From contig JBFWOS010000003.1 of NCBI GenBank assembly GCA_050250375.1, positions 273,284 through 337,283 on the forward strand: 64,000 bases of DNA, written 5' to 3'. This DNA is from Candidatus Omnitrophota bacterium (GTDB lineage Bacteria > Omnitrophota > Gorgyraeia > Zapsychrales > Zapsychraceae). Both the position numbers and the translations under genes were made by a program. Each line of letters starts with the position of its first letter. Within the stretch, counting starts at the first letter, position 1. The notes below the pieces were generated by a model that was given only the letters and a program-made list of their open reading frames with translations, ran no database searches and was not told the DNA's origin. Shown piece after piece: positions 21,580 through 49,045 of this stretch.

Positions 21580-21603
21580 ACGGAGTATTTTGACGCAGAA
21601 GAA

Positions 21604-21988
21604 TGGAGGTGCCGGGAATCGAACCCGGGTCCTTAATGAGCCTGCCTTAAGCCTCTACATGCGTAGTACGTCTTTTAATCTTACTGGTTTCACTCCAACG
21701 CACAGGATTTAAACCAGCCAGCCTATTGGTTTCGCTCCATCCCCCTAGGCCTGGGAGAAGCTAGCCTGTCCGTGTCCTTTTATAAATCAACAGGCCTGAT
21801 TTATAATAGGGCTTAGTTTATTCTTAAACTAAGGCTGGTGTCGCTTCAGCCAGAATTGCTTCTGCTTCAGCTACAGCGTCGTAATTATCGCCGTTTATTG
21901 TGTGCCTGGATTTTTAACGAGGCCAACCAGACATCCCCGGCATGCCACCTAAAGCATAAACATCTTAAGTCGAGACCAAATCACCCCC
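21604..21988 (-). ncRNA. ssrA: tmRNA (SsrA), ~385 nt, CCA not encoded
   Basis: The reverse complement starts GGGGGUGAUUUGGUCUCGAC.. and contains ..GGUGGCAUGCCGGGG..GGUUGGCCUCGUUAAAAAUCC.. (compare E. coli GGUGCAUGCCGAGGG..GGUUGGCCUCGUAAAAAGCC). It ends ..GGACCCGGGUUCGAUUCCCGGCACCUCCA: a tRNA-like T-arm plus a 7-bp acceptor stem pairing with the 5' GGGGGUG. The predicted tag frame is ..GGC GAU AAU UAC GAC GCU GUA GCU GAA GCA GAA GCA AUU CUG GCU GAA GCG ACA CCA GCC UUA GUU UAA. Confidence 0.85.
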
Positions 21989-30549: not shown

Positions 30550-32367
30550 ATGCAAGACATTCGATTACCCGAAGTCGGGGAGAATATCAAATCAGGCACA
30601 GTCGTCAACATATTTGTCAAAGTAGGCGACCGGGTTTCCAAGGGGGATGATCTGATCGAACTGGAAACAGATAAGGCCTCTTTGCCTGTCCCTTCTCCGG
30701 CCGATGGAGTCATTAAAGAAATCCTGATTAAAGCGGGAGCGGACGTTGAGATCGGATCTGTCATTATGAAAATGGAAGCGGCAGCTGGGCAGGCATCTCC
30801 ATCTCCTAAAGAAACTAAACCGGCGGCCGCAGTAAAAACGGAAACTGCCCCTCAACCCAAAATATCGTCATCCGCTGAAAAACCGCAATCACCGCAACCG
30901 TCCACTCCTGTCACCCGGCACTCTTTAAGTTCTCTGCCGTCGAAAGAAGAAGCTGGCAAAGATACCCAGTTGGTTGTTATCGGCGGCGGACCCGGCGGTT
31001 ACGCAGCCGCTTTCCTGGCCGCTGACCTGGGAATGGACGTTACGATCGTCGATCCTGAAAAAAACCCGGGCGGTGTATGTTTGTACCGCGGATGTATCCC
31101 CTCAAAGGCGTTACTCCATGCGGCGAAAGTTATTTCCGAAGCACGGGAAGCCAAACATTTCGGGCTTGATTTCGGCCAGCCCAAGATTGATCTCGATAAA
31201 TTACGCAATTGGAAAAATGATGTCGTGGCCAAACTGACCGGCGGGACCGGACAACTGGCCAAACAGCGTAAGATCAATATGATCCAAGGTACGGCCACTT
31301 TTGTTGATTCCAACACGATTAAAATCGAAAAAGTCGGCGGTGGAAATCAAACACTGACGTTTATCAAAGCTATTTTGGCGACCGGTTCGCGGCCGATTGA
31401 ACTCCCGTTTGCTCCGAAATCAAAACGTGTCCTGAACTCAACGACTGCCCTCGATATTGAAAATATTCCTAAAACCATGCTACTCATCGGCGGTGGATAT
31501 ATCGGACTGGAACTGGGTCAGGTATATGCCGAATTGGGTACAAAGGTCTCTGTTGTGGAACTGCTCCCTCAAATCATGACCGGGTCCGACCGCGATCTCT
31601 CCAGCATCCTCGAAAAACGGTTAAAAACCATCATGGATAAAATCATGGTTTCGACCAAGGTCAAAAGTCTGGAAGAAACAGCCGCTGGAATCAATGTCAC
31701 CTTTGAAGATACGGATGGAAAGACATTCAAAGAAACCTATGAAAAAGTACTGGTTGCCATCGGGCGAAAACCGAACACAGATAATATCGGCCTCGAAAAG
31801 ACATCTGTCACCATCAATAACCGCGGGTTTGTGGAGGTTAACGCGCAACTTCAAACACACGATCCTTCCATCTACGCGATTGGCGATATCGTCGGAAACC
31901 CTATGCTCGCCCATAAAGCTTCGCATGAAGGCCGGACAGCGGCCGAACACATTGCCGGACACAAAGTCGCTTTCGAGCCCAACGCAATCCCGGCGGTTGT
32001 CTTTACCGACCCGGAAATGGCCTGGGCCGGTTTGACTGAAACCGAAGCCAAAGCGCAGGGACGCAATTACGCTGTCGCTAAATTTCCATGGGGCGCATCC
32101 GGACGTGCCATCACACTTGACCGTGTCGACGGTTTAACTAAATTGCTGATTGATCCCGAAACGGAACGGATTCTGGGCATATCCATTGTCGGACCGAACG
32201 CGGGAGAAATGATCGCAGAAGGAGTCCTGGCCATTGAAATGGGCGCGGTCGTAACCGATCTTAAACTCAGCATACACGCCCACCCCACTCTAACCGAAAC
32301 CGTAATGGAGGCCGCCGAGAGTTTCTTCGGACAAGCCACGCATATTTACAAACCAATCAAAAAATAA
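30550..32367 (+). CDS. lpdA: dihydrolipoamide dehydrogenase E3 with N-terminal lipoyl domain
   Basis: 605 aa. N-terminal lipoyl domain plus linker, then FAD-binding VVIGGGPGGY, redox-active GGVCLYRGCIPSK, NAD-binding LLIGGGYIGLE, C-terminal HAHPTLTE. Confidence 0.9.
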   Translation: MQDIRLPEVGENIKSGTVVNIFVKVGDRVSKGDDLIELETDKASLPVPSPADGVIKEILIKAGADVEIGSVIMKMEAAAGQASPSPKETKPAAAVKTETAPQPKISSSAEKPQSPQPSTPVTRHSLSSLPSKEEAGKDTQLVVIGGGPGGYAAAFLAADLGMDVTIVDPEKNPGGVCLYRGCIPSKALLHAAKVISEAREAKHFGLDFGQPKIDLDKLRNWKNDVVAKLTGGTGQLAKQRKINMIQGTATFVDSNTIKIEKVGGGNQTLTFIKAILATGSRPIELPFAPKSKRVLNSTTALDIENIPKTMLLIGGGYIGLELGQVYAELGTKVSVVELLPQIMTGSDRDLSSILEKRLKTIMDKIMVSTKVKSLEETAAGINVTFEDTDGKTFKETYEKVLVAIGRKPNTDNIGLEKTSVTINNRGFVEVNAQLQTHDPSIYAIGDIVGNPMLAHKASHEGRTAAEHIAGHKVAFEPNAIPAVVFTDPEMAWAGLTETEAKAQGRNYAVAKFPWGASGRAITLDRVDGLTKLLIDPETERILGISIVGPNAGEMIAEGVLAIEMGAVVTDLKLSIHAHPTLTETVMEAAESFFGQATHIYKPIKK

Positions 32368-32388: not shown

Positions 32389-32790
32389 TCAGCGTCTGGA
32401 CGGATCGAATGAATTTCTGGTCTGTTCATCAAAAATCATGTAATAAAGGCTAATTCCGTGGAGGATCGTACCGATGGGAAATCCGATAAGAAAAACAGCC
32501 GAAACCATCATTTGAAAAATCCGGGCGGATTCTTTCAAGGCCGACAAACCTTTATTTATAAAATATAACAAAACGATCGGGACAGCGCCGACAGCCAGAA
32601 TCAAAAAAATCATTCCGGTGATATCCAGCCAGGTGATTTCTCCGGCGGCAGACAACCGTCCTTCCTCAATCAGATCCGGCAGGATCATCCCCAAAGCCAG
32701 TACAATCACAATGACAGCCACGCCCATCTGTAAACGATTAATAACGATGGAATACTTAACACCAAAAGGTAATCGGGGATCTAACGTCAT
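32389..32790 (-). CDS. small multi-pass membrane protein, translationally coupled to the giant ORF
   Basis: 133 aa, 3-4 hydrophobic helices. Its ATG overlaps the giant ORF's stop (ATGA, 4-nt overlap). Confidence 0.5.
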   Translation of the reverse strand: MTLDPRLPFGVKYSIVINRLQMGVAVIVIVLALGMILPDLIEEGRLSAAGEITWLDITGMIFLILAVGAVPIVLLYFINKGLSALKESARIFQMMVSAVFLIGFPIGTILHGISLYYMIFDEQTRNSFDPSRR

Positions 32791-35700
32791 TTCTTAACCA
32801 TTAAATCCTTATCCGTCTCTGAATAACCCATAAGGAACAACCCGGGGTTGATCATCGGTGTAAACTGGATGATATTGAATTCCATTCCCTGAAAATTAAT
32901 CAGTGGTACGGCCGGGACCGTGAGCGGCGATGTGTCTATTGTGTTACTCTGTATCGTCATGACTTTGCTTTCAGTATTCCTTAAATCAATCCCACCTTTT
33001 TTAGCGGAGGACTGTTGCAGATCTTCGGCTGTTTCTTTCTCAAAATCAGAATAACGCAGTACCCCGTCTGAATTTGTATTGGCCAGAACAGCCATGTCGC
33101 CAAAAACATACCCGAATTTCTCCTGGGTCAAAAGATCTGTTTCCATGGTCAATTCTTCAATCAACTCTTTCCCAAAATGGGCCAGATGCGGTTGTTGTTC
33201 ATCGATTAATTTTTCCAAGGCCCCCAGGTTTTTGACCGGGATAATGAACCGCCAGTCAAGGATACTATCATTGTGTTGGTCGACTTCAAAATCATGGGCC
33301 CCCAATTGTTCAAGTCTCTTGCGGTCGCCTTCATTCAACTCGAGTCCTCCGCCGATGGTATTATACTGGACCGGTTTTCCTGTTTTAACAGGGCCGTGCC
33401 GCATCAGGAGCAGCTTTCCATCAACCATGAATCTAACCCGGCTTTTAACCGTCACGCGGACCTCACCAAATCTTTCCAGCGCATCGCCTCGGTCGTCATA
33501 AACCGTTTTGTGGGGTACCGCAGAAAACAAACGATAACGTTCGGCCATACCCAGCTGGTCAAATTGTTTGAGGACCGGCGGGACATTGCGTGTGATGACG
33601 GCTTCTACAGGTTCGCCTCCGATGGTCGTTTCAAAACGCCCGTTCAAGATTTCTTCATCCGTAGCCAGAATGAACTTCCCGTCGCTACCGCTGGCAGCTT
33701 CACGAAAAATGTCCTCCCCTTCGGGGCTCAATTGCGCGTCATAAACCTTCATGTACGTCACGGAAGGTTTTTTATTGCTCTCGGAATAAAACTGACGCTG
33801 ACCTTCGTAAGATATCGTAACGTGAGGCCCCGTATAAATCGTCTGGCTCAACGGATTAATAAGCCGGTTCGACTTAACGCTGACCTTATCATGAAATTGT
33901 GTTTTCTTGAGAGTTTCATCTTCCATCGCTTTTGTCATCCGCTCGCGTCTTATTTTCCTTAAGGCAAATTTCACTTCAAGGCTCAAGAATATGACGGGAA
34001 TTGTAGCCGGAAAGAGCAACCCTGATAATAAAATTGGGATGCTGAACATCTTCCGGTTTTTGGTCAGATAATTTTTCATTTTTTCGTCAAGTTTGTTTCG
34101 TTCCTCTTCACTTATGTTTTTGTCATTTCTGAAGCGTTCAATGATATTTTCAAAGAAACTGAACTCTTCATCCGGTTCCATATAGGCTAAGTAAGGAAGA
34201 ATTCTTGAAATCACGATGAAATAAACAATCGACAATGAGGCCAAAGACAGGCCGAATACTTCGGGGGTGGTAAATACTTCCGTTATCGTAATATCAGGGA
34301 AACTGGGGAGCCCTAGTTTTTCAAGCACTAAATCTAGAGTTGGGACTATGACAAAGACAGAACTGATGAAAAACAATACTGTATAAATAAATTTCATCGC
34401 CATGCTGAAATTTCTCTGATGCAGGTCGCTGCCGGTGGCAAGGCTGTGCTGAGGCAGGTATTGATAAGAACTATCAATGCTGTCATGTTCATCTCTTAGA
34501 TTTTTTAATTTACGTTCATATAAAGCCGCCCGGAAAATCGGCGGCTGGGAAGAACTGATGATTTTGGCCTGTGCGATCTCCAGGTCTTTAAGCGTATCAG
34601 ACATTTCATCGATGGTAACGAGCACGTCATTGCTGGACCACTCATACAGCGATGTGACCCCGAAGAAATCTCTTAATTTGGCCGCAAGAGTAATCCCGAA
34701 CGGTTTCCATAAAAATCTGCTTTTCGCCTCCTGAAATTGACTTTTCAAGACATAGAGTCCGGTAAAACTGGCCATCAGCAGTCTTACTTGATTAGCGTAT
34801 TGGGCCAGCGTCAGAAAATATTCCTGATATTTCAACAGGTCCGGACTGTTCGCCCGGGTCAGAACCATGTAGCTGTCCAAGGCATATTCCCGGATTTCAT
34901 TATAGTATCCGGCATTCTTCTTAAAATCTCCGATCTTAAGATCCGAGGAATCCATAAACTGCTGGATCCGGGTTACCAGGCGGTTTAGCGGTTCAAGATC
35001 AAGACGCTCGGGATTTTCCTTAAACTGGTCCCATTCGTTCATCAAATCAATGAATCCGTCTTTGCTTACCGCGATTTCAACCGTTTTCTGATCCTGCCCT
35101 TGCGGCTGGAACCCTATCCCCAGGGCTTCAACACCGGCAGGGACATCCTGTACGTTTATGCGGATACCCGTTGGATGATGGTCGACGGAAACCCTGTCCG
35201 GCTCGACTTCTACCCGCCGGCCCTCTTCAATCAAATATAATTTCAACCGAGGATCATCCCCCCCGGCCGCAGTCCCTTGACTATTATTCACAAAAGCCGT
35301 TTGAATATTCTGAAGCATACTCCTTTTATTCCTGAAGAAACTTTCAGCGAATATACGCAATTCGACATGCCCGTTGACCCGGACCGTTTTAACATCATAA
35401 AAACGCGATGATTTCAGACGAAATAACGGCGTCCACCCCTTGGATTTTGGCATGAAATGTCGAGAAAAATAATTCAAAAACTCCCCCTTAACGGAAATTT
35501 TCGATGACTCTGCTTTAATCCCGTTAATATCCGCCCGTGGATCCATGGACTTTAACTTATTCAGTTTCTTTTGATATTCCCTTTCGGTCGCAAAAATAAA
35601 ACTGTTCGGGACAATAAGCCGGGTCAACCCGAAGCTTCCGACTGCCAGCAAAAATGGAATAAATAAATTAATCAAGAACCCCAGATTCCAGAGCACCAGA

Positions 35701-38700
35701 AGGACCGAAACGACATAGGCCCTCCTCCTCCAGATGTCATGGCCGGTAATGCTGTCCGGAAAAGGTTTTTCAAGCCCATCGGTGAACGTATAAAATTCCC
35801 GCTGTAAATTTTCCAATGAGTAAGACTTCCCCGCGACATAATTTTCTTCTCCAAGGATTTCCTCCTCCAACCGGTCCAGACTTCGACGGGAATTGTAATA
35901 ATCAGTAATCGCCGTTAAGGCCTTTCGTTTGGCCCGGCCGAAGGCCAGCTCCGACAGGGAAATCATCCTCGACCACTTGTCCAACGGATAATGGAACAAT
36001 CGGAAACTCAGGTCGTCGCGTGTGGGGAGAAATAAACTCTGATTGGTGTCCAGGGTCGCATTGTGTCCTTTTAACCGCGCAATGACGGTATACTGTAAGG
36101 CGGTTTCCCGAAAGTATTGTTTGAATATTTCTGAAACGTTGTTTTCTTTCTTCATCCTTTCCAACATACCGATGGACAACTCCTGAAGATAAAAATTTGT
36201 TTCAACCGATTTTCCCCTGACGTCTTTAAAAACAACCGGATTCTCCTCACGAAAACGCCTCATCTTTAAAACCCATTCCTCCAGACTCATGATCTCTTTC
36301 AGGCGTTTTGACTGGTCTTTGGCCAGTTCATGCGCGCGTTGGGCCCGTCTCAATTCGCCTTCCAGCATCGAAACCTTCAGGCTTTCCCGTTTTTCCTGAT
36401 CCAGCAGGGATTTACGTTCTTTTTTTAATTCATGCAGCCGTTTTTTGGTCAGGTCTTTTTGTTGTCTGGCTTTACTGCGGTCCAACTCCAATTCTTGTTG
36501 ATGTTCATATAGTTTGTCAGCCGCCAAGGTGGCCCGGAACTGATCCAGAAACTCCTGTAATCTTTCTTCGACAAGCGGTATTTCAAACGCGTCGAACTTT
36601 TCTCCTCTTATTCTGAAACTGACGGACAGGGGATCTCCAGATTTAAACCGGACTCCTTTTTTCCAATCTTTCCGGGAAAGAACCAAATGCAACTTTATGC
36701 TGGTTGTTTTGACTTCCACGTTTGATAGTTTAAGTTCGGTCGGTTTGCCGCGGTTCGCCAGAATTCGGATATCTTTGGATTTAAAAGCCGAAGCAACCGC
36801 ATCCGCCGTTTCCTGTTTGGAATGTTTCCGTCCATTGAGGGCATTCTTGGCTCTTAAAGTCACGATAACCTCCTCTCCCTTAAGCTCAGCAGATATCTGT
36901 TCAAACGCCGTCCTTTTCGACATCAACGCCTCTTTAAGAAAGAGCGTAAAATGATTTTTTTGCCCGCCTTTTAAATAGTCTGAAAATGTTCTGAGAAACG
37001 ATTCCTTGGATGTTTCTGAACGTTCTTTTCCTTTACGGTTCTGGAAAAACACAAATAAAAAAGAAACCATGGCCAGGACGGAAAACACAATCTCGAAGAA
37101 TCTTTGGAAAAAACCTTGTTTGGGTGTTTCCGGTGTCCGATCCGTCACTGGCTCTCTTTCATCCATGATTGGCGAAGTCCTTTCTTGGACCTCTGGCTCA
37201 ACGGATAGATCGTGTTCCGGAATAATTGGTGGTATGTCCGTACGGGGTAGTGGTTGCATCTGTCTTTCCCCTTCAGCCCGTTCCGGCGAGGCTCCACCTG
37301 AAAGATCGGGTAATGCCTGCAGCAACGGTAACGGCTGTCCGGTCAACCGTTGCTGGACCAATTCCGGTAAAATCCCACGGGCCATCTTAAATGTTTGATT
37401 GGTTAATATGAGATCCGGGTTATCAGGGTTGGGAACAATTGTATTGGTTAAGTAATCAACCGCGCCGCCCTCGACCCAGAACGGTTTGGAGAATTCAGAC
37501 TGCCTAAAATTCGCCCGGTCATGTTTCCGGTATGACCGCCGTATATCCTGCAGGATCTCCCCCATGGTGTCCCCCTGTTCAACCTGGATCACCAGGTTTC
37601 CCTGTTGATCGTTCGTATACGTTGCCGCGCTCGCTTGTGAGAGTAACGCCAGATTGCTTAAGGTCAAAAAAACCAGCATGCCGGTTAAGGCGATCGGTTT
37701 TTTAAAATGTGCAGGTAACCCTGAAAAAAGCTTAAACCGCCAGGGGAATTGATAATCGGAGGATGTTCCAGGTTCGGAATTTTCCTTGGACTGGTAGGAA
37801 CGGATCAGTTCACTCGCGCTGACACCAATCGGCTTGAGCTGAATTTTTGTTAATGTCAATTTTTTCTTAAGTTTGTCTAATAAATTGATAACACTGCCGC
37901 CGTACTGCGAAACGGAACGGAAACTCAGCCACTGGGAGGGATTTTTAAAACTGAACCCTCCGCTGAAATACTTGCGCGGGATCACCGACTGGTTTTCATC
38001 CAGGTCTTCTTTGACATAGTTATAAACACCCATTTTGAGGGCCTGGATGTATTGTTCATAGACCTCCTCTTTAATTTCAACGCGGCCGGAATCAATGCCT
38101 TTAATTTTATTCTGGTCTCCATAAAGTTCCGTAATGATATTCCGTTTTAAGTGGCTTTTATACCACAAGGCCAGAATGAGTGAATAATAGACCTGCCGCA
38201 ATGAGGCGAAATGCTCCCCTTCATTGACTTCCTTCTTTAATTCAGGGAGGATGATTTCTTTGATAATCTGGGCAGCAATCTGATTGGATTTGTCCTGATG
38301 TTCCGCATCGTCGGCCGGAACATCCGGTGATAGCCCTGTGCGGAATTCTTGCCGGTGTTCATTGTACCGTGACTGGGCCAGGTAATCTTCCTCAAGCATA
38401 ACATCCAGGCTTGTTTCACTGACAAAGGCCATATTGTCTTTTTCATAAACAACCGCCCTCTCGGGAACGATCCAGATCTTATTGAAATTGTGGATGGGAA
38501 TATCCGTTAAACCGTATCTATCTTCAATCTGTTTATACACACGGCTCCAGAACTCCTGTCCCAATTTTGTTTCCGGATAAGTCATTGACGCAGACAATTG
38601 TTTTAACAGATAATCCTGCAAAAGAAGTTCCCGTCCCAGCTCGGTCTTGACCAGTTGATCGGGAATAATCCGGGACGGCTCATAAGGCGATAAATTAACC

Positions 38701-39041
38701 CACAGTTCATCGACCGGAACGGTTAATGTCGTAAGAAAATATTTAATGAGCGTGTCCGCATCCTGCCGGCTGATTGTTTCCTGATCACCGGAATCGATCA
38801 TAAAATCAATCTCAAAGGGGTTCTGGGGATAAACCCTGATCGCCCTTAAAACAGGATATTGCACCGCGGCCGACGAAGTTATGAGCGTTCCCGGGCTGGT
38901 GAGCATCAACTGGCTGGCCTGAGCCAGGTCGGAAACCAAGACGTTGAATGTAAAACAGTGCAGAAGCACCAGGCAAATAAACTTAAAACCGCGTGAACGG
39001 CGTATATTTCCCAAAGTACCAGGATTATATTTACTTAACAT
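32787..39041 (-). CDS. giant (2084 aa) membrane-associated protein of unknown function
   Basis: Uninterrupted 6.25-kb ORF. N-terminal signal/TM (FKFICLVLLHCFTFNVLVSDLAQASQ). At least seven further dispersed hydrophobic helices (e.g. IALTGMLVFLTLSNLALL; FFEIVFSVLAMVSFLFVFF; YVVSVLLVLWNLGFLINLFIPFLLAVGSFGL; FIYTVLFFISSVFVIVP; MFSIPILLSGLLFPATIPVIFLSL). A Pro/Glu-rich linker (..PLPRTDIPPIIPEHDLSVEPEVQERTSP..) and a long coiled-coil stretch (ELELDRSKARQQKDLTKKRLHELKKERKSLLDQEKRESLK..). No catalytic motif recognised. Confidence 0.7.
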   Translation of the reverse strand: MLSKYNPGTLGNIRRSRGFKFICLVLLHCFTFNVLVSDLAQASQLMLTSPGTLITSSAAVQYPVLRAIRVYPQNPFEIDFMIDSGDQETISRQDADTLIKYFLTTLTVPVDELWVNLSPYEPSRIIPDQLVKTELGRELLLQDYLLKQLSASMTYPETKLGQEFWSRVYKQIEDRYGLTDIPIHNFNKIWIVPERAVVYEKDNMAFVSETSLDVMLEEDYLAQSRYNEHRQEFRTGLSPDVPADDAEHQDKSNQIAAQIIKEIILPELKKEVNEGEHFASLRQVYYSLILALWYKSHLKRNIITELYGDQNKIKGIDSGRVEIKEEVYEQYIQALKMGVYNYVKEDLDENQSVIPRKYFSGGFSFKNPSQWLSFRSVSQYGGSVINLLDKLKKKLTLTKIQLKPIGVSASELIRSYQSKENSEPGTSSDYQFPWRFKLFSGLPAHFKKPIALTGMLVFLTLSNLALLSQASAATYTNDQQGNLVIQVEQGDTMGEILQDIRRSYRKHDRANFRQSEFSKPFWVEGGAVDYLTNTIVPNPDNPDLILTNQTFKMARGILPELVQQRLTGQPLPLLQALPDLSGGASPERAEGERQMQPLPRTDIPPIIPEHDLSVEPEVQERTSPIMDEREPVTDRTPETPKQGFFQRFFEIVFSVLAMVSFLFVFFQNRKGKERSETSKESFLRTFSDYLKGGQKNHFTLFLKEALMSKRTAFEQISAELKGEEVIVTLRAKNALNGRKHSKQETADAVASAFKSKDIRILANRGKPTELKLSNVEVKTTSIKLHLVLSRKDWKKGVRFKSGDPLSVSFRIRGEKFDAFEIPLVEERLQEFLDQFRATLAADKLYEHQQELELDRSKARQQKDLTKKRLHELKKERKSLLDQEKRESLKVSMLEGELRRAQRAHELAKDQSKRLKEIMSLEEWVLKMRRFREENPVVFKDVRGKSVETNFYLQELSIGMLERMKKENNVSEIFKQYFRETALQYTVIARLKGHNATLDTNQSLFLPTRDDLSFRLFHYPLDKWSRMISLSELAFGRAKRKALTAITDYYNSRRSLDRLEEEILGEENYVAGKSYSLENLQREFYTFTDGLEKPFPDSITGHDIWRRRAYVVSVLLVLWNLGFLINLFIPFLLAVGSFGLTRLIVPNSFIFATEREYQKKLNKLKSMDPRADINGIKAESSKISVKGEFLNYFSRHFMPKSKGWTPLFRLKSSRFYDVKTVRVNGHVELRIFAESFFRNKRSMLQNIQTAFVNNSQGTAAGGDDPRLKLYLIEEGRRVEVEPDRVSVDHHPTGIRINVQDVPAGVEALGIGFQPQGQDQKTVEIAVSKDGFIDLMNEWDQFKENPERLDLEPLNRLVTRIQQFMDSSDLKIGDFKKNAGYYNEIREYALDSYMVLTRANSPDLLKYQEYFLTLAQYANQVRLLMASFTGLYVLKSQFQEAKSRFLWKPFGITLAAKLRDFFGVTSLYEWSSNDVLVTIDEMSDTLKDLEIAQAKIISSSQPPIFRAALYERKLKNLRDEHDSIDSSYQYLPQHSLATGSDLHQRNFSMAMKFIYTVLFFISSVFVIVPTLDLVLEKLGLPSFPDITITEVFTTPEVFGLSLASLSIVYFIVISRILPYLAYMEPDEEFSFFENIIERFRNDKNISEEERNKLDEKMKNYLTKNRKMFSIPILLSGLLFPATIPVIFLSLEVKFALRKIRRERMTKAMEDETLKKTQFHDKVSVKSNRLINPLSQTIYTGPHVTISYEGQRQFYSESNKKPSVTYMKVYDAQLSPEGEDIFREAASGSDGKFILATDEEILNGRFETTIGGEPVEAVITRNVPPVLKQFDQLGMAERYRLFSAVPHKTVYDDRGDALERFGEVRVTVKSRVRFMVDGKLLLMRHGPVKTGKPVQYNTIGGGLELNEGDRKRLEQLGAHDFEVDQHNDSILDWRFIIPVKNLGALEKLIDEQQPHLAHFGKELIEELTMETDLLTQEKFGYVFGDMAVLANTNSDGVLRYSDFEKETAEDLQQSSAKKGGIDLRNTESKVMTIQSNTIDTSPLTVPAVPLINFQGMEFNIIQFTPMINPGLFLMGYSETDKDLMVKK

Positions 39042-39074
39042 TTATCAGAACTCTTTCATAAGTTATTTAAGCTA

Positions 39075-39098
39075 AACAAATATTAATATATGTTTGTT
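39075..39098. promoter_or_regulatory. imperfect palindrome AACAAATAT-TAAT-ATATGTTTGTT ~35 nt upstream of the giant ORF start, candidate operator
   Basis: Arms aacaaatat / atatgtttgtt are near reverse complements. It sits in the AT-rich promoter region of the minus-strand giant gene. Confidence 0.3.
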
Positions 39099-39184
39099 AA
39101 ATACTTATGAATGGAAGGTGAACTTCTGGGAAAAATCCTGTGACATTTTTCGTCGGCGGGAATACGATAAGTGCATCCATCATT

Positions 39185-39586
39185 CTATGACGGGGAATCG
39201 GTTTTATCCGTTAGCGGTTTCAGTATTTTGACGATTTCCCTGTCTTCATCAATAAACGAAAATTCGTGCATACGTCCGGGGTCAATCCAACTGATTTCCG
39301 AATGCACACGAAGTTCCGGAAGGCCTTCGGCCCATTGGGCCTGAAAGGCATACAAGACCATATTTCGGCCTCTAAAATATCCTTCTATCTTGCCCAAAAG
39401 TTTCTCGACCTTAACAATGATATTTAATTCCTCTTTCATTTCACGGACAAGACATTGTTCCGGCGTTTCCCCGGATTCGATGTGTCCTCCGGGAAACTCC
39501 CAAAACTGGTCTTTGCTGCGTTTGGCGATGAGGATATGCCCTTCTTTCCAGATAACTCCAGCGGTGGCTATTTTCAGCATATTCAT
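39185..39586 (-). CDS. NUDIX hydrolase (MutT-like)
   Basis: 133 aa. Nudix box GGHIESGETPEQCLVREMKEELNI (GX5EX7REUXEEXGU). Confidence 0.8.
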   Translation of the reverse strand: MNMLKIATAGVIWKEGHILIAKRSKDQFWEFPGGHIESGETPEQCLVREMKEELNIIVKVEKLLGKIEGYFRGRNMVLYAFQAQWAEGLPELRVHSEISWIDPGRMHEFSFIDEDREIVKILKPLTDKTDSPS

Positions 39587-42017: not shown

Positions 42018-43084
42018 AGAATCCCTTTTCGCTGAATAGTGATGAATTGCCGCCTTCGGTAATTCTAATGGTCAAGGTTATTGCCCTGAGTCTATTGTTA
42101 AAAGGGTATTTGTTCCAGATGTCCGATCACTTTGTCCCACTCGTCCCCATTTTTGATTACTTTGGCCCGCCAGCCCTGTTCCGGTTAATTTTACAAGCAG
42201 TCTTTTTGTTCTCCACCATCTCCATACTCTTCACATATAAAATCCGGTTAAACTGCCTTTTGCTGGGATCTGTCTTCTTAATTGTCCCAATGTCTTCTAT
42301 TGTCAGTTATCTGAACGCAAAAGTTTTTTGCGGATTTATATTTTTAATGGCCGGTCTGCACAGAAAAGGGGAAAATCCCTGGCTTATCCGTTTACAGGTG
42401 TCGTTGGTGTATTTCGGTTCGGGTTTAAATAAGCTGCTTGATCCGGACTGGCTTTCTGGACAATACTTTGAATACTGGATGCATGAAATTATCATTAATA
42501 AAAAATATATTATGGCCGCCTCTTACTTACCTCCTATGTTATTATCCAAACTCATGGGCTGGTTAACCATAATAGGAGAATTTGTGATTTCAGTCTTCTT
42601 AACATCTAAGCGATATTATTCATTAGCGATTTGGATGGGTATATGTTTTCACACGACAGCATTGGTCATGACATGGATGGATTATGGAATTTTTACGATC
42701 GCGATACTAATGTCGTATCTGTGTTTTATCCGTTGGCCGGAAATGATTGAGATTACAGTCAATCCCGACAGGAGTCTTCATATTCTCCTAAAAAATATTC
42801 TTTCTAGAATGGATTGTGACAAAAGGATCATCTGGCGGGAAGCAACCGATCCGACATTATCCGTTACAGTGAATAAAATCATCTTCCGAGGGTTTATCGG
42901 GTTTAAAAAAATTGTTCTTTATTCTCCGGTATTTTATTTTTTGATGGCCATTCTCTTGAGTGGAACACAGGGGTATGTCAATTCGTTTCAAATCAGGATG
43001 GTTGAACTGATATTTTTATTTTTTCTTCCGGTTCCTGAAATGATTAGTTTATCTCAAAAATATAAACGAACTGTTTTCACTTAA
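41996..43084 (+). CDS. multi-pass membrane protein, HTTM-like N-terminal region with a DUF393/DCC-like C-terminal tail lacking the CxxC
   Basis: 362 aa. ~7 TM helices, then a soluble segment (..RMDCDKRIIWREATDP..KIIFRGFIGFKKIVLYSP..) reminiscent of the DCC thiol-disulfide oxidoreductase fold but without its CxxC. Tentative. Confidence 0.4.
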   Translation: MEMAHPVKNPFSLNSDELPPSVILMVKVIALSLLLKGYLFQMSDHFVPLVPIFDYFGPPALFRLILQAVFLFSTISILFTYKIRLNCLLLGSVFLIVPMSSIVSYLNAKVFCGFIFLMAGLHRKGENPWLIRLQVSLVYFGSGLNKLLDPDWLSGQYFEYWMHEIIINKKYIMAASYLPPMLLSKLMGWLTIIGEFVISVFLTSKRYYSLAIWMGICFHTTALVMTWMDYGIFTIAILMSYLCFIRWPEMIEITVNPDRSLHILLKNILSRMDCDKRIIWREATDPTLSVTVNKIIFRGFIGFKKIVLYSPVFYFLMAILLSGTQGYVNSFQIRMVELIFLFFLPVPEMISLSQKYKRTVFT

Positions 43085-43698
43085 ACTTCTTTCTTTAAAT
43101 CAAAAATCTTCTCAAGCCAAATAAAACCCAGATAAAAAATGCCGGCCATATATCCGGCAGCATGAGAACCGGGAACGGCCCGGACAGAAAGGTCGGTAAA
43201 GATTGTTTCATGGGTTGACAGTTCAAAAAATATCTTGGCCACCGTTGCCAATAAAATACCCAGACACATCTTTTCTCCGGTCCGTTTATATTGCGTAACG
43301 GCCGCCAAAACCAACATTCCATTTAATGCACCGGACAAACCGCAATAACTGCTGAACTTAGTTTCAATAAAAAACATCCAGCCGCTGACGGCCAGACAGC
43401 TGACAAAGAGGCAGGGCAGGAAATGACGGGGATTATTGAGTTCAATCACCGAACCGATGACGAGAAAAGCCAACAGATCCCACAATAGATGTTGAAAATT
43501 ACAATGCACGAAATGCGCGGTAAACAACCGCCAGAATTCACCCTGCGCGATCAGCGTTTTATCAAACAAAAGACTGTTGAACAAAATTTGTCCGGACAGA
43601 TATAAGCCGATCATGCCCAGGGTTAACATCACAGTCAGCCACGGCACCTTGAGGGTGCCGCGGCTTTTTTCTTTTTGGAATAGATGGATGTTCATCAT
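43081..43698 (-). CDS. short rhomboid-family intramembrane serine protease, rhombosortase-like
   Basis: 205 aa. EFWRLFTAHFVHCNFQHLLWDL (rhomboid helix 2), catalytic GLSGALNG (GxSG) and HAAGYMAG (His). The size and position directly after a GlyGly-CTERM protein fit rhombosortase. Confidence 0.8.
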   Translation of the reverse strand: MMNIHLFQKEKSRGTLKVPWLTVMLTLGMIGLYLSGQILFNSLLFDKTLIAQGEFWRLFTAHFVHCNFQHLLWDLLAFLVIGSVIELNNPRHFLPCLFVSCLAVSGWMFFIETKFSSYCGLSGALNGMLVLAAVTQYKRTGEKMCLGILLATVAKIFFELSTHETIFTDLSVRAVPGSHAAGYMAGIFYLGFIWLEKIFDLKKEV

Positions 43699-48340: not shown

Positions 48341-49045
48341 TTAACTCCTTAATGATTGATCAAGTTCAACGGCCATATGGATCTTGGCCTTCAGTTTAAA
48401 ATAAATATAGATTAACAGCGGGATGACAAAAGCCGCGTATAAAGATCCGAATAACGGTGAAATAAGAATCAAAAAATTGTACAACCCATGAATGAATATC
48501 GCCTGCCAGAGTCCGATATTGATCAGCCGTTGTTCTTCCTTTTTATCGATAGAAAATTTGGCCAAGCCGATATAATAGCCCATTGTTCCTGAAGCGACCG
48601 CGTGCAGGGGAACCGCCGTGATCCCGCGGACCACTGCCGTCTCAAAAGAATTCTGAATAACATACATGATATTTTCTATACACGCGAAACCCAGTGACGC
48701 GACGATGGTAAAGATAATCCCGTCGATTATTTTCTGAAAACGGGGACTGTTATAGACAAATATCTTGATAATCGCCAGTTTTATATACTCTTCACATAAT
48801 CCTGCTACGATAAACGCTTCAAAGAAATAAAAATAGAATTTTGACCAATTATAATAAAGATTCAGCCGGCTGATAATTATCTCCAGCGTACATACAGGGA
48901 CGATCGACAAAATTCCGATAAGAAATATCTTTATGATAAGGGCCTTTGACTCAGTCTTGTTCTTAGCCAGCCGGCAAAAATACCAGACCAGAAATATGGC
49001 CGGAATAACGGCCATCAAAAAAGAAACCCAGGTCGACATATACAT
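48341..49045 (-). CDS. PrsW-family intramembrane metalloprotease
   Basis: 234 aa, multi-TM. Contains EEYIK (EExxK), FACIENIMY (FxxxENxxY) and HAVASG (His). Confidence 0.7.
   Translation of the reverse strand: MYMSTWVSFLMAVIPAIFLVWYFCRLAKNKTESKALIIKIFLIGILSIVPVCTLEIIISRLNLYYNWSKFYFYFFEAFIVAGLCEEYIKLAIIKIFVYNSPRFQKIIDGIIFTIVASLGFACIENIMYVIQNSFETAVVRGITAVPLHAVASGTMGYYIGLAKFSIDKKEEQRLINIGLWQAIFIHGLYNFLILISPLFGSLYAAFVIPLLIYIYFKLKAKIHMAVELDQSLRS

Follow-up and report, generated by a model that had tools for sequence, protein, structure and literature searches.

A giant membrane protein of a Candidatus Omnitrophota bacterium belongs to a large family with conserved ends and variable inserts

The Omnitrophota are widespread, uncultured and apparently host-dependent nanobacteria, and the long and giant proteins that they encode are a recognised puzzle, in that these carry signal peptides yet contain enzymes of cytoplasmic type. 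Those described include the 'Archaeovorins', the dockerin-type giants and the 'multi-enzyme metabolic clusters', which are long open reading frames (ORFs) rich in signal peptides and transmembrane (TM) helices (West-Roberts et al. 2023, preprint; Seymour et al. 2023; bioRxiv 10.64898/2026.06.07.730766). The clash between their export signals and their cytoplasm-type content has been noted (10.64898/2026.06.07.730766), and delivery to a host has been proposed for giants far larger than the protein discussed here (PMC10066038; 10.1101/2023.11.21.568195; 10.64898/2026.06.07.730766). We have analysed a stretch of 64,000 nucleotides (the window) on contig JBFWOS010000003.1 of a Candidatus Omnitrophota bacterium (assembly GCA_050250375.1), and in it a gene (32787-39041, minus strand) for a 2084-residue membrane protein that is identical to protein AB7S78_06615 of a Candidatus Omnitrophota metagenome-assembled genome (MAG). 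An initial annotation, made from the letters of the sequence, had presented this giant gene as one without a recognisable domain; we find that it is not an orphan, and that the two ends of its product, called bookends below, are common to thousands of Omnitrophota proteins. Positions are those of the window and residue numbers those of the giant protein; the gene and all features within it lie on the minus strand.

The closest described relatives in kind are these long and giant modular proteins, which come from the same phylum and share with the bookend family a repertoire of inserts (PGM, starch synthase, GT1, radical SAM, HATPase, methyltransferase, HEAT, NUDIX). The giants differ in size, at >10-147 thousand amino acids (kAA) against 2 kAA here, and, unlike them, our protein has no dockerin, TSP3, C39 or SecA-like domain by Pfam. 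Archaeovorin and dockerin-type proteins are recognised by a length of >30,000 aa together with dockerin/TSP3, discoidin, C39 peptidase or SecA-like domains, a combination that the 2084-aa protein does not have. The open-access papers on Omnitrophota giants do not mention a conserved N-terminal domain (N-domain) or C-terminal motif (C-motif) of the kind described below, and the family is apparently undescribed, no published name or description having been found in Pfam, NCBIfam or the open-access literature searched.

Proteins of the TpsA, CdiA and Rhs types likewise combine a signal peptide and a conserved N-terminal domain of trafficking type with a long variable remainder, and have many paralogues per genome. 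They differ from the bookend family in that the C-terminus of the latter is conserved and is not a variable toxin tip, and in that its inserts are metabolic or structural. Neither a TPS/haemagglutination domain nor a beta-helix fold was found in the giant protein, and no transporter or immunity gene adjoins the family's genes at the 79 loci compared. Nor does it resemble the RTX-type (LapA-like) adhesins of type I secretion systems: it has a single GGIDL, no repeat array, and a Sec-type leader. Scans of domain libraries gave no adhesin, toxin or lytic domain in the giant protein, and the RHS/YD, MCE/PqiB and AsmA-like families, which the initial annotation had named among those whose detection in large parts of it would overturn its claim, gave no profile match. 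It is probably neither a toxin nor an adhesin.

A word-index search with the full protein yielded at least 2539 matches, which share with it only residues ~14-410 and the last ~60 residues; the matches bearing a source name are nearly all labelled Omnitrophota. More than 100 members align to residues 14-410 at 43-52% identity, and it is this N-terminal ~17% of the protein, together with its last ~60 residues, that the initial annotation had missed. Searching 1.84 billion representatives by phmmer with the N-terminal domain gave 7785 matches, 6073 of them at E<=1e-30; these are clusters at 50% identity, and what follows on taxonomy is based on the best genome loci. The proteins matched measure 372-5358 aa, and the match always falls at residues ~30-400. 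When one genome per GTDB species was scanned, at least 594 stretches were confirmed, the best 80 of which are nearly all from Omnitrophota MAGs (placeholder names stand on some of the records: 'uncultured Planctomycetales' and one 'Bacteroidales' bin); among these best 80, a genome has up to 6 loci. The family to which the giant protein belongs is a very large one of paralogues, and the top genome hits show it almost exclusively in Omnitrophota.

The giant gene itself is a real and intact gene of the bacterium. It runs from an ATG for 2084 codons without interruption, as the initial annotation had described for an ORF of ~6.25 kb. The identical protein is present on three contigs in NCBI and Logan assemblies, and ten orthologues (26-35% identity) are colinear with it through the N-domain, both central modules and the C-motif. 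The nearest relative comes from another metagenome, on a JGI contig; its C-terminal part is 83% identical, and its C-terminal architecture, the ATGA overlap with the following gene, and the neighbouring genes are all as in our locus. Against this stands the idea that the gene is an artefact, whether a chimera of the assembly, a pseudogene made by fusion or a frame left open by chance. Beyond the fact that the source is a MAG we found nothing in its favour; the chimera or frameshift that the initial annotation had named as a possible refutation is contradicted by the three identical copies, the colinear orthologues and the conserved gene order of the 83% relative, and the chance of it is virtually nil.

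Three elements are shared by the family: a Sec-type signal peptide, an N-terminal domain of ~330-370 aa and a C-terminal motif of ~55 aa. The signal peptide of the giant protein (aa 1-42; 38916..39041) has a K/R-rich n-region, an h-region of 16-18 aa and A-Q-A before the predicted cleavage site. Family leaders have a hydrophobic core in 111 of 118 cases, a mean net charge of +3.5 in the 15 residues before the core, and, in 91 of the 118 members, [AVSTGC]-x-A followed by Q. These are the features of a cleavable Sec signal peptide, and cleavage is predicted. Directly after it comes the N-domain, ~330 aa long with the conserved motifs WVNLSPYE, QDYLLKQL, EKEVNEG and PRKYFSGG. The giant protein has a long form of this domain (aa ~60-410; 37812..38864), with an extra beta-alpha-beta element at aa ~370-410, and retains all residues invariant in the family, among them ~10 invariant polar residues. 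No fold match to the N-domain was found among solved PDB structures, sequence and profile searches of the PDB found nothing, and no model in Pfam-A or NCBIfam covers the N-domain or the C-motif in this protein or in four canonical members.

At the other end the C-motif (aa 2016-2072; 32826..32996), GGIDL...FQGMEFNIIQFTPMINP, lies 68 aa from the C-terminus. Tested as the pattern GG[IV][DN]...G[FM]x[FP]x[IV][IL]..P at 55-105 aa from the C-terminus, it is present in 113 of 120 members, which carry both ends, and in proteins of 640 to 5358 aa. Its consensus is GGIDLNpa.L.LQ....G.g.plp...q.i....I.GF.PvIInItPi.NlpllLG, and a variable polar or acidic tail of 10-50 aa follows. The motif has an 'S' flavour (G[FL]xP[VI]I) and an 'M' flavour (G[FM]x[FY]x[IFV][ILV]), the latter being that of the giant protein. 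Among the first 120 matches, all 29 M-flavour proteins have internal TM helices, whereas 62 of the 77 S-flavour proteins have none; in an enlarged set the long N-domain (similarity reaching residue 403 of the giant protein or beyond) occurs in 31/31 M-flavour and 13/129 S-flavour members. The two ends co-vary, a correlation and not a proof of interaction, because the groups are not phylogenetically independent. The giant protein is the membrane-embedded subtype of the bookend family.

In PEP-CTERM/exosortase, type IX secretion system C-terminal domain (T9SS CTD), LPXTG and GlyGly-CTERM systems there is likewise a short C-terminal motif that spans thousands of otherwise unrelated signal-peptide proteins, in our case within one phylum. 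The bookend C-motif differs in being followed by a polar tail without the TM helix and basic cluster, in always being paired with a large N-terminal domain, and in having two flavours, which vary with the membrane content of the insert; the sorting-signal models of NCBIfam matched neither the giant protein nor the four canonical members. An exosortase (EpsH family) gene was seen 2 kb downstream of one orthologue, P0003 (locus L011, 8227-9065), a single case, and the family C-motif does not resemble PEP-CTERM. We tentatively entertain the idea that the N-domain and C-motif are the halves of an unrecognised, phylum-specific targeting, anchoring or ligation system.

What lies between the ends differs completely among members and measures from 200 to 5000 aa. 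Precomputed Pfam assignments in these inserts include phosphoglucomutase, glucose-6-phosphate isomerase (PGI), triose-phosphate isomerase (TIM), phosphoglycerate kinase (PGK), hexokinase, class I aldolase and glycogen synthase, and also HEAT repeats, M48 peptidase with UbiB, radical SAM, SNF2 helicase, CBM_4_9 and GH116. In one member the class I aldolase match exceeds the equivalog threshold of NCBIfam (263.6 vs 250 bits), some members have HlyD-like and TolC-like OEP domains, and those with a signal peptide as their only membrane segment include proteins with CBM_4_9 or GH116. Members P0056 (1181 aa), P0095, P0115 and P0018 carry apparently complete enzymes of central metabolism between the signal peptide plus N-domain and the C-motif: a class I aldolase (equivalog score) with ACP-like domains, PGK, TIM with isocitrate lyase and malate synthase, and PGI with PGM. 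Across the 79 family loci no neighbouring gene recurs, the largest non-family cluster being found at 4 of them; at 12 of the 79, another family member ends directly upstream, forming a tandem array.

In the giant protein a Kyte-Doolittle scan finds one N-terminal hydrophobic segment and seven further ones, at aa 18-39, 450-468, 648-666, 1110-1128, ~1130-1150, 1555-1573, 1597-1621 and 1670-1693 (TM1 to TM8), which agrees with the signal/TM segment and at least seven further helices of the initial annotation. After the N-domain comes a segment resembling an internal signal peptide (aa 449-468; 37638..37697), with K/R before it and AxA after it; a comparable segment is found at this position in the orthologues, with a hydrophobic run of only 13-18 aa. 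A small domain follows (aa 470-569; 37335..37634), without a Pfam match of its own, at the position where orthologue P0002 has PG_binding_1 twice (E 1.3e-8, 35 bits vs a cut-off of 23). To the eye this domain looked LysM-like, for which Pfam gave no support. A spacer (aa 570-640; 37122..37334; 41% P+E+D), which is the Pro/Glu-rich linker of the initial annotation, then leads to TM helix 3 (aa 646-668; 37038..37106), seen in both the hydropathy plot and an AlphaFold2 model.

Beyond TM3 lies module A (aa 669-1107; 35721..37037), in which a small alpha/beta domain precedes a helical bundle, and then a TM hairpin of helices 4 and 5 (aa 1108-1150; 35592..35720) with K/R on its outer flanks only. 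Module B (aa 1166-1547; 34401..35546) repeats module A by hhalign, alignment and AlphaFold2, and is followed by a second TM hairpin (helices 6 and 7, aa 1548-1621; 34179..34400), recognised from hydropathy, the AlphaFold2 model and its K/R flanks, and by TM helix 8 (aa 1668-1692; 33966..34040). Profile-profile comparison of aa 668-1165 with aa 1166-1715 in hhalign gave a probability of 100% (E 1.1e-39, 399 columns), and the centre of the protein is a tandem duplication of a ~500-aa module, each copy comprising an alpha/beta domain and a helical bundle with a TM hairpin after them. The ~70-residue Lys/Glu/Arg coiled coil that had been noted earlier is there (aa 864-933; 47% K+E+R), as an insertion in the first module copy; the K/E/R-rich element in module A extends over aa 848-925 (36267-36500), and AlphaFold2 models a helical hairpin at aa 848-915. 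The AlphaFold2 model of the core has a predicted local distance difference test score (pLDDT) of 69.5 and a predicted TM-score (pTM) of 0.65. A word-index homologue search with the core (aa 638-1716) gave no match, which we attribute to swamping of the index by the K/E-rich coiled coil.

The initial annotation had recognised no domain in the protein, but Pfam places Sa_NUDIX (PF18167) above its gathering cut-off of 25 at aa 1860-1979 (33105-33464), with 37.7 bits for the whole protein and 45 bits (E 1.5e-11) for the sub-region. The domain is part of a NUDIX module (aa ~1745-1985; 33087..33809) that begins with a pre-domain of ~110 aa. By alignment, this ~240-aa module after TM8 is present in the giant protein and the 83% relative and missing from all ten orthologues, and it is a lineage-specific insertion. 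It is also inserted in the unrelated family members P0013 (86 bits) and P0033. The GG and the acidic residues of the Nudix helix are conserved (KELIEEL..E against REUxEE), the glutamates being invariant in a four-sequence alignment; the Arg of REUxEE is a Lys in the giant protein, and ~70 residues separate the GG from the Nudix helix. A homologue search with the module found one close fragment only (P0215), and the alignment of the module is shallow.

Sa_NUDIX is reportedly, in work ascribed to Burroughs et al. in 2015, the SMODS-associated NUDIX domain of nucleotide-centric conflict systems. The giant protein could on this basis be a defence effector, in which Sa_NUDIX senses or degrades a SMODS/CD-NTase messenger and the TM helices disrupt the membrane, as in systems of the cyclic-oligonucleotide-based antiphage signalling (CBASS) type. 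An above-threshold domain adjoining a TM region, with its acidic Nudix-helix residues kept, fits such an effector; however, PADLOC matches neither the giant protein nor the small ORF that follows its gene, no SMODS/CD-NTase or other defence gene was found within 10 kb, and the GC content of the giant gene equals that of the rest of the window, without sign of a mobile island. The NUDIX module cannot define the core function of the giant protein, because it is absent from all ten orthologues, and its presence in unrelated family members also counts against a dedicated effector, which we regard as highly improbable.

The topology of the giant protein was approached through the K+R content of the 15 residues flanking each helix, averaged over 11 orthologues. 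The means before and after the helix are 3.7 and 1.4 for TM1, 1.9 and 3.9 for TM3, 2.5 and 0.5 for TM4, 0.2 and 2.9 for TM5, 2.4 and 0.3 for TM6, and 0.3 and 2.8 for TM7; TM8, with 3.5 before and 2.9 after, is ambiguous in orientation. By the positive-inside rule, the flanks of TM3-TM7 place modules A and B in the cytoplasm, with TM4/5 and TM6/7 as predicted hairpins. The N-domain would lie on the envelope side, because members with HlyD-like or OEP domains have no TM helix between those domains and the N-domain, and the TM2-TM3 region would be periplasmic, because orthologues carry PG_binding_1 repeats there. Both can be periplasmic only if the segment at aa 449-468 does not span the membrane. 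Six spanning helices (TM3-TM8) would put the C-motif on the same side as the N-domain.

In overall architecture this resembles FimV/HubP, where a signal peptide and a membrane anchor are likewise combined with a region that binds the wall in the periplasm and a large helical region in the cytoplasm, and one bookend orthologue (P0002) adjoins pilM/N/O. The likeness would be one of architecture alone: no similarity of sequence or fold was detected, the giant protein has six TM helices and duplicated modules, and the peptidoglycan-binding match is found only in orthologues.

A rival reading has the N-terminal segment as an uncleaved anchor or peripheral helix, the N-domain and most inserts of the family in the cytoplasm, and only the TM2-TM3 loop of the giant protein in the periplasm. 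The K/R residues before aa 449-468, in the giant protein and its orthologues, would mean that the N-domain ends in the cytoplasm; the metabolic and nucleic-acid enzymes among the inserts, and the NUDIX module, suit the cytoplasm; and many long Omnitrophota proteins have been read as membrane-anchored with cytoplasmic content (10.64898/2026.06.07.730766). This makes little of a leader that has all the features of a cleavable Sec signal, oriented N-in, with the charge and the AxA|Q described above, or of the members with HlyD/OEP, CBM_4_9 or GH116 and no TM helix between these and the N-domain, and we consider it distinctly unlikely.

A further reading makes the whole family a host- or prey-directed machine, exported for delivery to, or insertion into, a host cell, with the bookends as secretion signals and the TM helices inserting in the target membrane. 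Signal peptides on cytoplasm-type inserts (aldolase, PGK, kinases, helicase) would make sense if the destination were a host cytoplasm. Omnitrophota have been described as host-dependent, and their giant ORFs, found near type II secretion system (T2SS) or pilus genes, have been proposed to serve attachment or predation (PMC10066038; 10.1101/2023.11.21.568195; 10.64898/2026.06.07.730766), an association echoed by orthologue P0002 (L002, 1-5852), which lies directly downstream of a pseudopilin gene and a PilM/PilN/PilO cluster. The K/R flanks of TM3-TM7, however, fit a resident inner-membrane protein with cytoplasmic modules, and the peptidoglycan-binding repeats of the orthologues suggest the cell's own wall as partner; no secretion gene was found within 10 kb of the giant gene, and the lack both of a recurrent neighbour at the family loci and of adhesin, toxin or lytic domains tells in the same direction. 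Host delivery is in our view unlikely. The surface or effector machine that the initial annotation suggested may still prove right as to role, but the positive-inside analysis puts both large modules on the cytoplasmic side; its description of the product as a lineage-specific giant membrane protein is borne out.

The reading that we favour, at a probability of roughly one half, is that the giant protein is a scaffold embedded in the envelope, from a sorting or anchoring family not described before. The signal peptide would export the N-terminal part, leaving the N-domain, the small domain and the spacer in the periplasm; TM3 would bring the chain back to the cytoplasm, on whose face modules A and B would each be held by a TM hairpin; and the NUDIX module and C-motif may be carried back by TM8 to the periplasm, which would put them on the same side as the N-domain. 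The bookends would then be a targeting, anchoring or processing device shared by the whole family, and this member a scaffold or signalling protein that ties a wall-side region to two cytoplasmic helical modules, to which the NUDIX module may add nucleotide binding or hydrolysis in one lineage only.

Several points weigh against this scaffold. Inserts of cytoplasmic type (aldolase, PGK, TIM, SNF2 helicase, radical SAM enzymes) are frequent in the family and sit badly with export, and the 79 loci reveal no conserved neighbour that would point to a sorting machine. The scaffold function is the default reading of an architecture without a fold match, and the topology derives from hydropathy and charge counts only. 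Residues 469-580 of the giant protein have no Pfam match at E<=10. The segment at aa 449-468 has its K/R on the N-terminal side, and if it spans the membrane the N-domain and the domain at the peptidoglycan-binding position cannot both be periplasmic. With TM8 ambiguous, the NUDIX module and the C-motif may lie on either side of the membrane, and a NUDIX domain outside the cytoplasm would be unusual.

The stop codon of the giant gene overlaps by 4 nt (ATGA) the start of a 133-aa ORF with 3-4 TM helices (32389..32790, minus strand), as the initial annotation had reported. This ORF has no family match in Pfam, NCBIfam or PADLOC. The nearest relative carries a 132-aa counterpart (73% identity, E 2e-72) with the ATGA overlap kept, and a comparison of the two gave pN 0.155 and pS 0.693 (dN/dS ~0.09), so the small ORF is a real gene under purifying selection. 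It is not always co-encoded with the giant gene, a point that the initial annotation had raised: kept only in the nearest relative, it is missing from each of the seven distant orthologous loci. At the P0004, P0006 and P0007 loci the giant gene is followed by an unrelated ORF (soluble, DUF4032-like, 76-87 aa); a different 3-TM ORF of 94-113 aa follows it at the P0010 and P0011 loci, and no small ORF follows it at the P0002 and P0003 loci. For the 133-aa ORF and the small membrane ORFs 3' of P0010/P0011 hhalign gave a probability of 1%, and homology between them was rejected. A small ORF 14-27 nt downstream is thus a recurrent feature of orthologous loci, and its identity varies.

Further genes were seen at some of these loci. 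In the P0010/P0011 lineage (L005, 11370-12009; L009, 10308-10927) the 3-TM ORF is conserved, with 40% identity between both loci, and is followed by an ORF of ~105 aa with only sigma-70 region 2. At three loci (L003, 11534-15526; L007, 11549-15597; L010, 6401-10896) the giant gene is followed by the 76-87-aa DUF4032-like ORF and, further on, by a second member of the N-domain family (649-713 aa) and a MamF_MmsF (magnetosome-type) gene; in L003 and L007, two of the three, a TerC gene lies between these.

The surroundings of the giant gene in the window are as first annotated, with pyruvate dehydrogenase genes on one side and MutT-like NUDIX and OCD genes on the other. The E3 (dihydrolipoyl dehydrogenase) of the pyruvate dehydrogenase cluster (30550-32367, plus strand; 605 aa) has an N-terminal biotin/lipoyl domain fused on. 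The MutT-like NUDIX hydrolase gene (39185-39586, minus strand; 133 aa; PF00293, 69 bits) lies 143 nt upstream of the giant gene; its proximity to a gene with an internal Sa_NUDIX module may be coincidence or may reflect a functional link. Genes for two intramembrane proteases, a rhomboid (43081-43698, minus strand) and a PrsW-like protein (~48341-49045, minus strand), are found 4-10 kb upstream. The 143-nt intergenic region contains the imperfect palindrome of the initial annotation (39074-39095; AAACAAATATTA/TAATATATGTTT; 12 nt, 92% complementary), which a palindrome scan recovers as a short, AT-rich and undistinctive element. Promoter-like matches upstream of the giant gene did not exceed shuffled controls and were discarded; terminator-like matches numbered 20 against 9.0 (standard deviation 3.2) in shuffles, scattered over both strands within the coding region, and nothing is concluded from them. 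Rfam, run over the window, matched only a tmRNA gene (21601-21988, minus strand; 163.8 bits) and gave no riboswitch or other RNA element ahead of the giant gene. The tag peptide of a tmRNA usually has an ALAA-type ending; the one predicted here, GDNYDAVAEAEAILAEATPALV, ends in PALV.

If the N-domain and C-motif do form a targeting, anchoring or ligation system, it would carry thousands of inserts over the inner membrane, with the envelope or a host cell as their destination, and whole enzymes of glycolysis, kinases, helicases and domains of efflux type would be among the cargo. Recognition or processing of the C-motif would fall to the N-domain, acting in cis or in trans, and could close proteins into loops or join them head to tail; the 2084-aa protein would be the membrane-embedded subtype of that system. 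Cleavage or ligation at the bookends can be sought in metaproteomes, and candidate sorting enzymes by phylogenetic profiling. The protein itself is no longer an orphan giant but has a defined architecture, in which the bookends enclose a region on the wall side, two copies of a cytoplasmic module and, as an insertion, the NUDIX module. For the Omnitrophota, the bookends provide a concrete shared feature for at least part of the puzzle of their long proteins, framing the inserts of at least 7,785 protein clusters and allowing the full set of such inserts to be listed for each genome.

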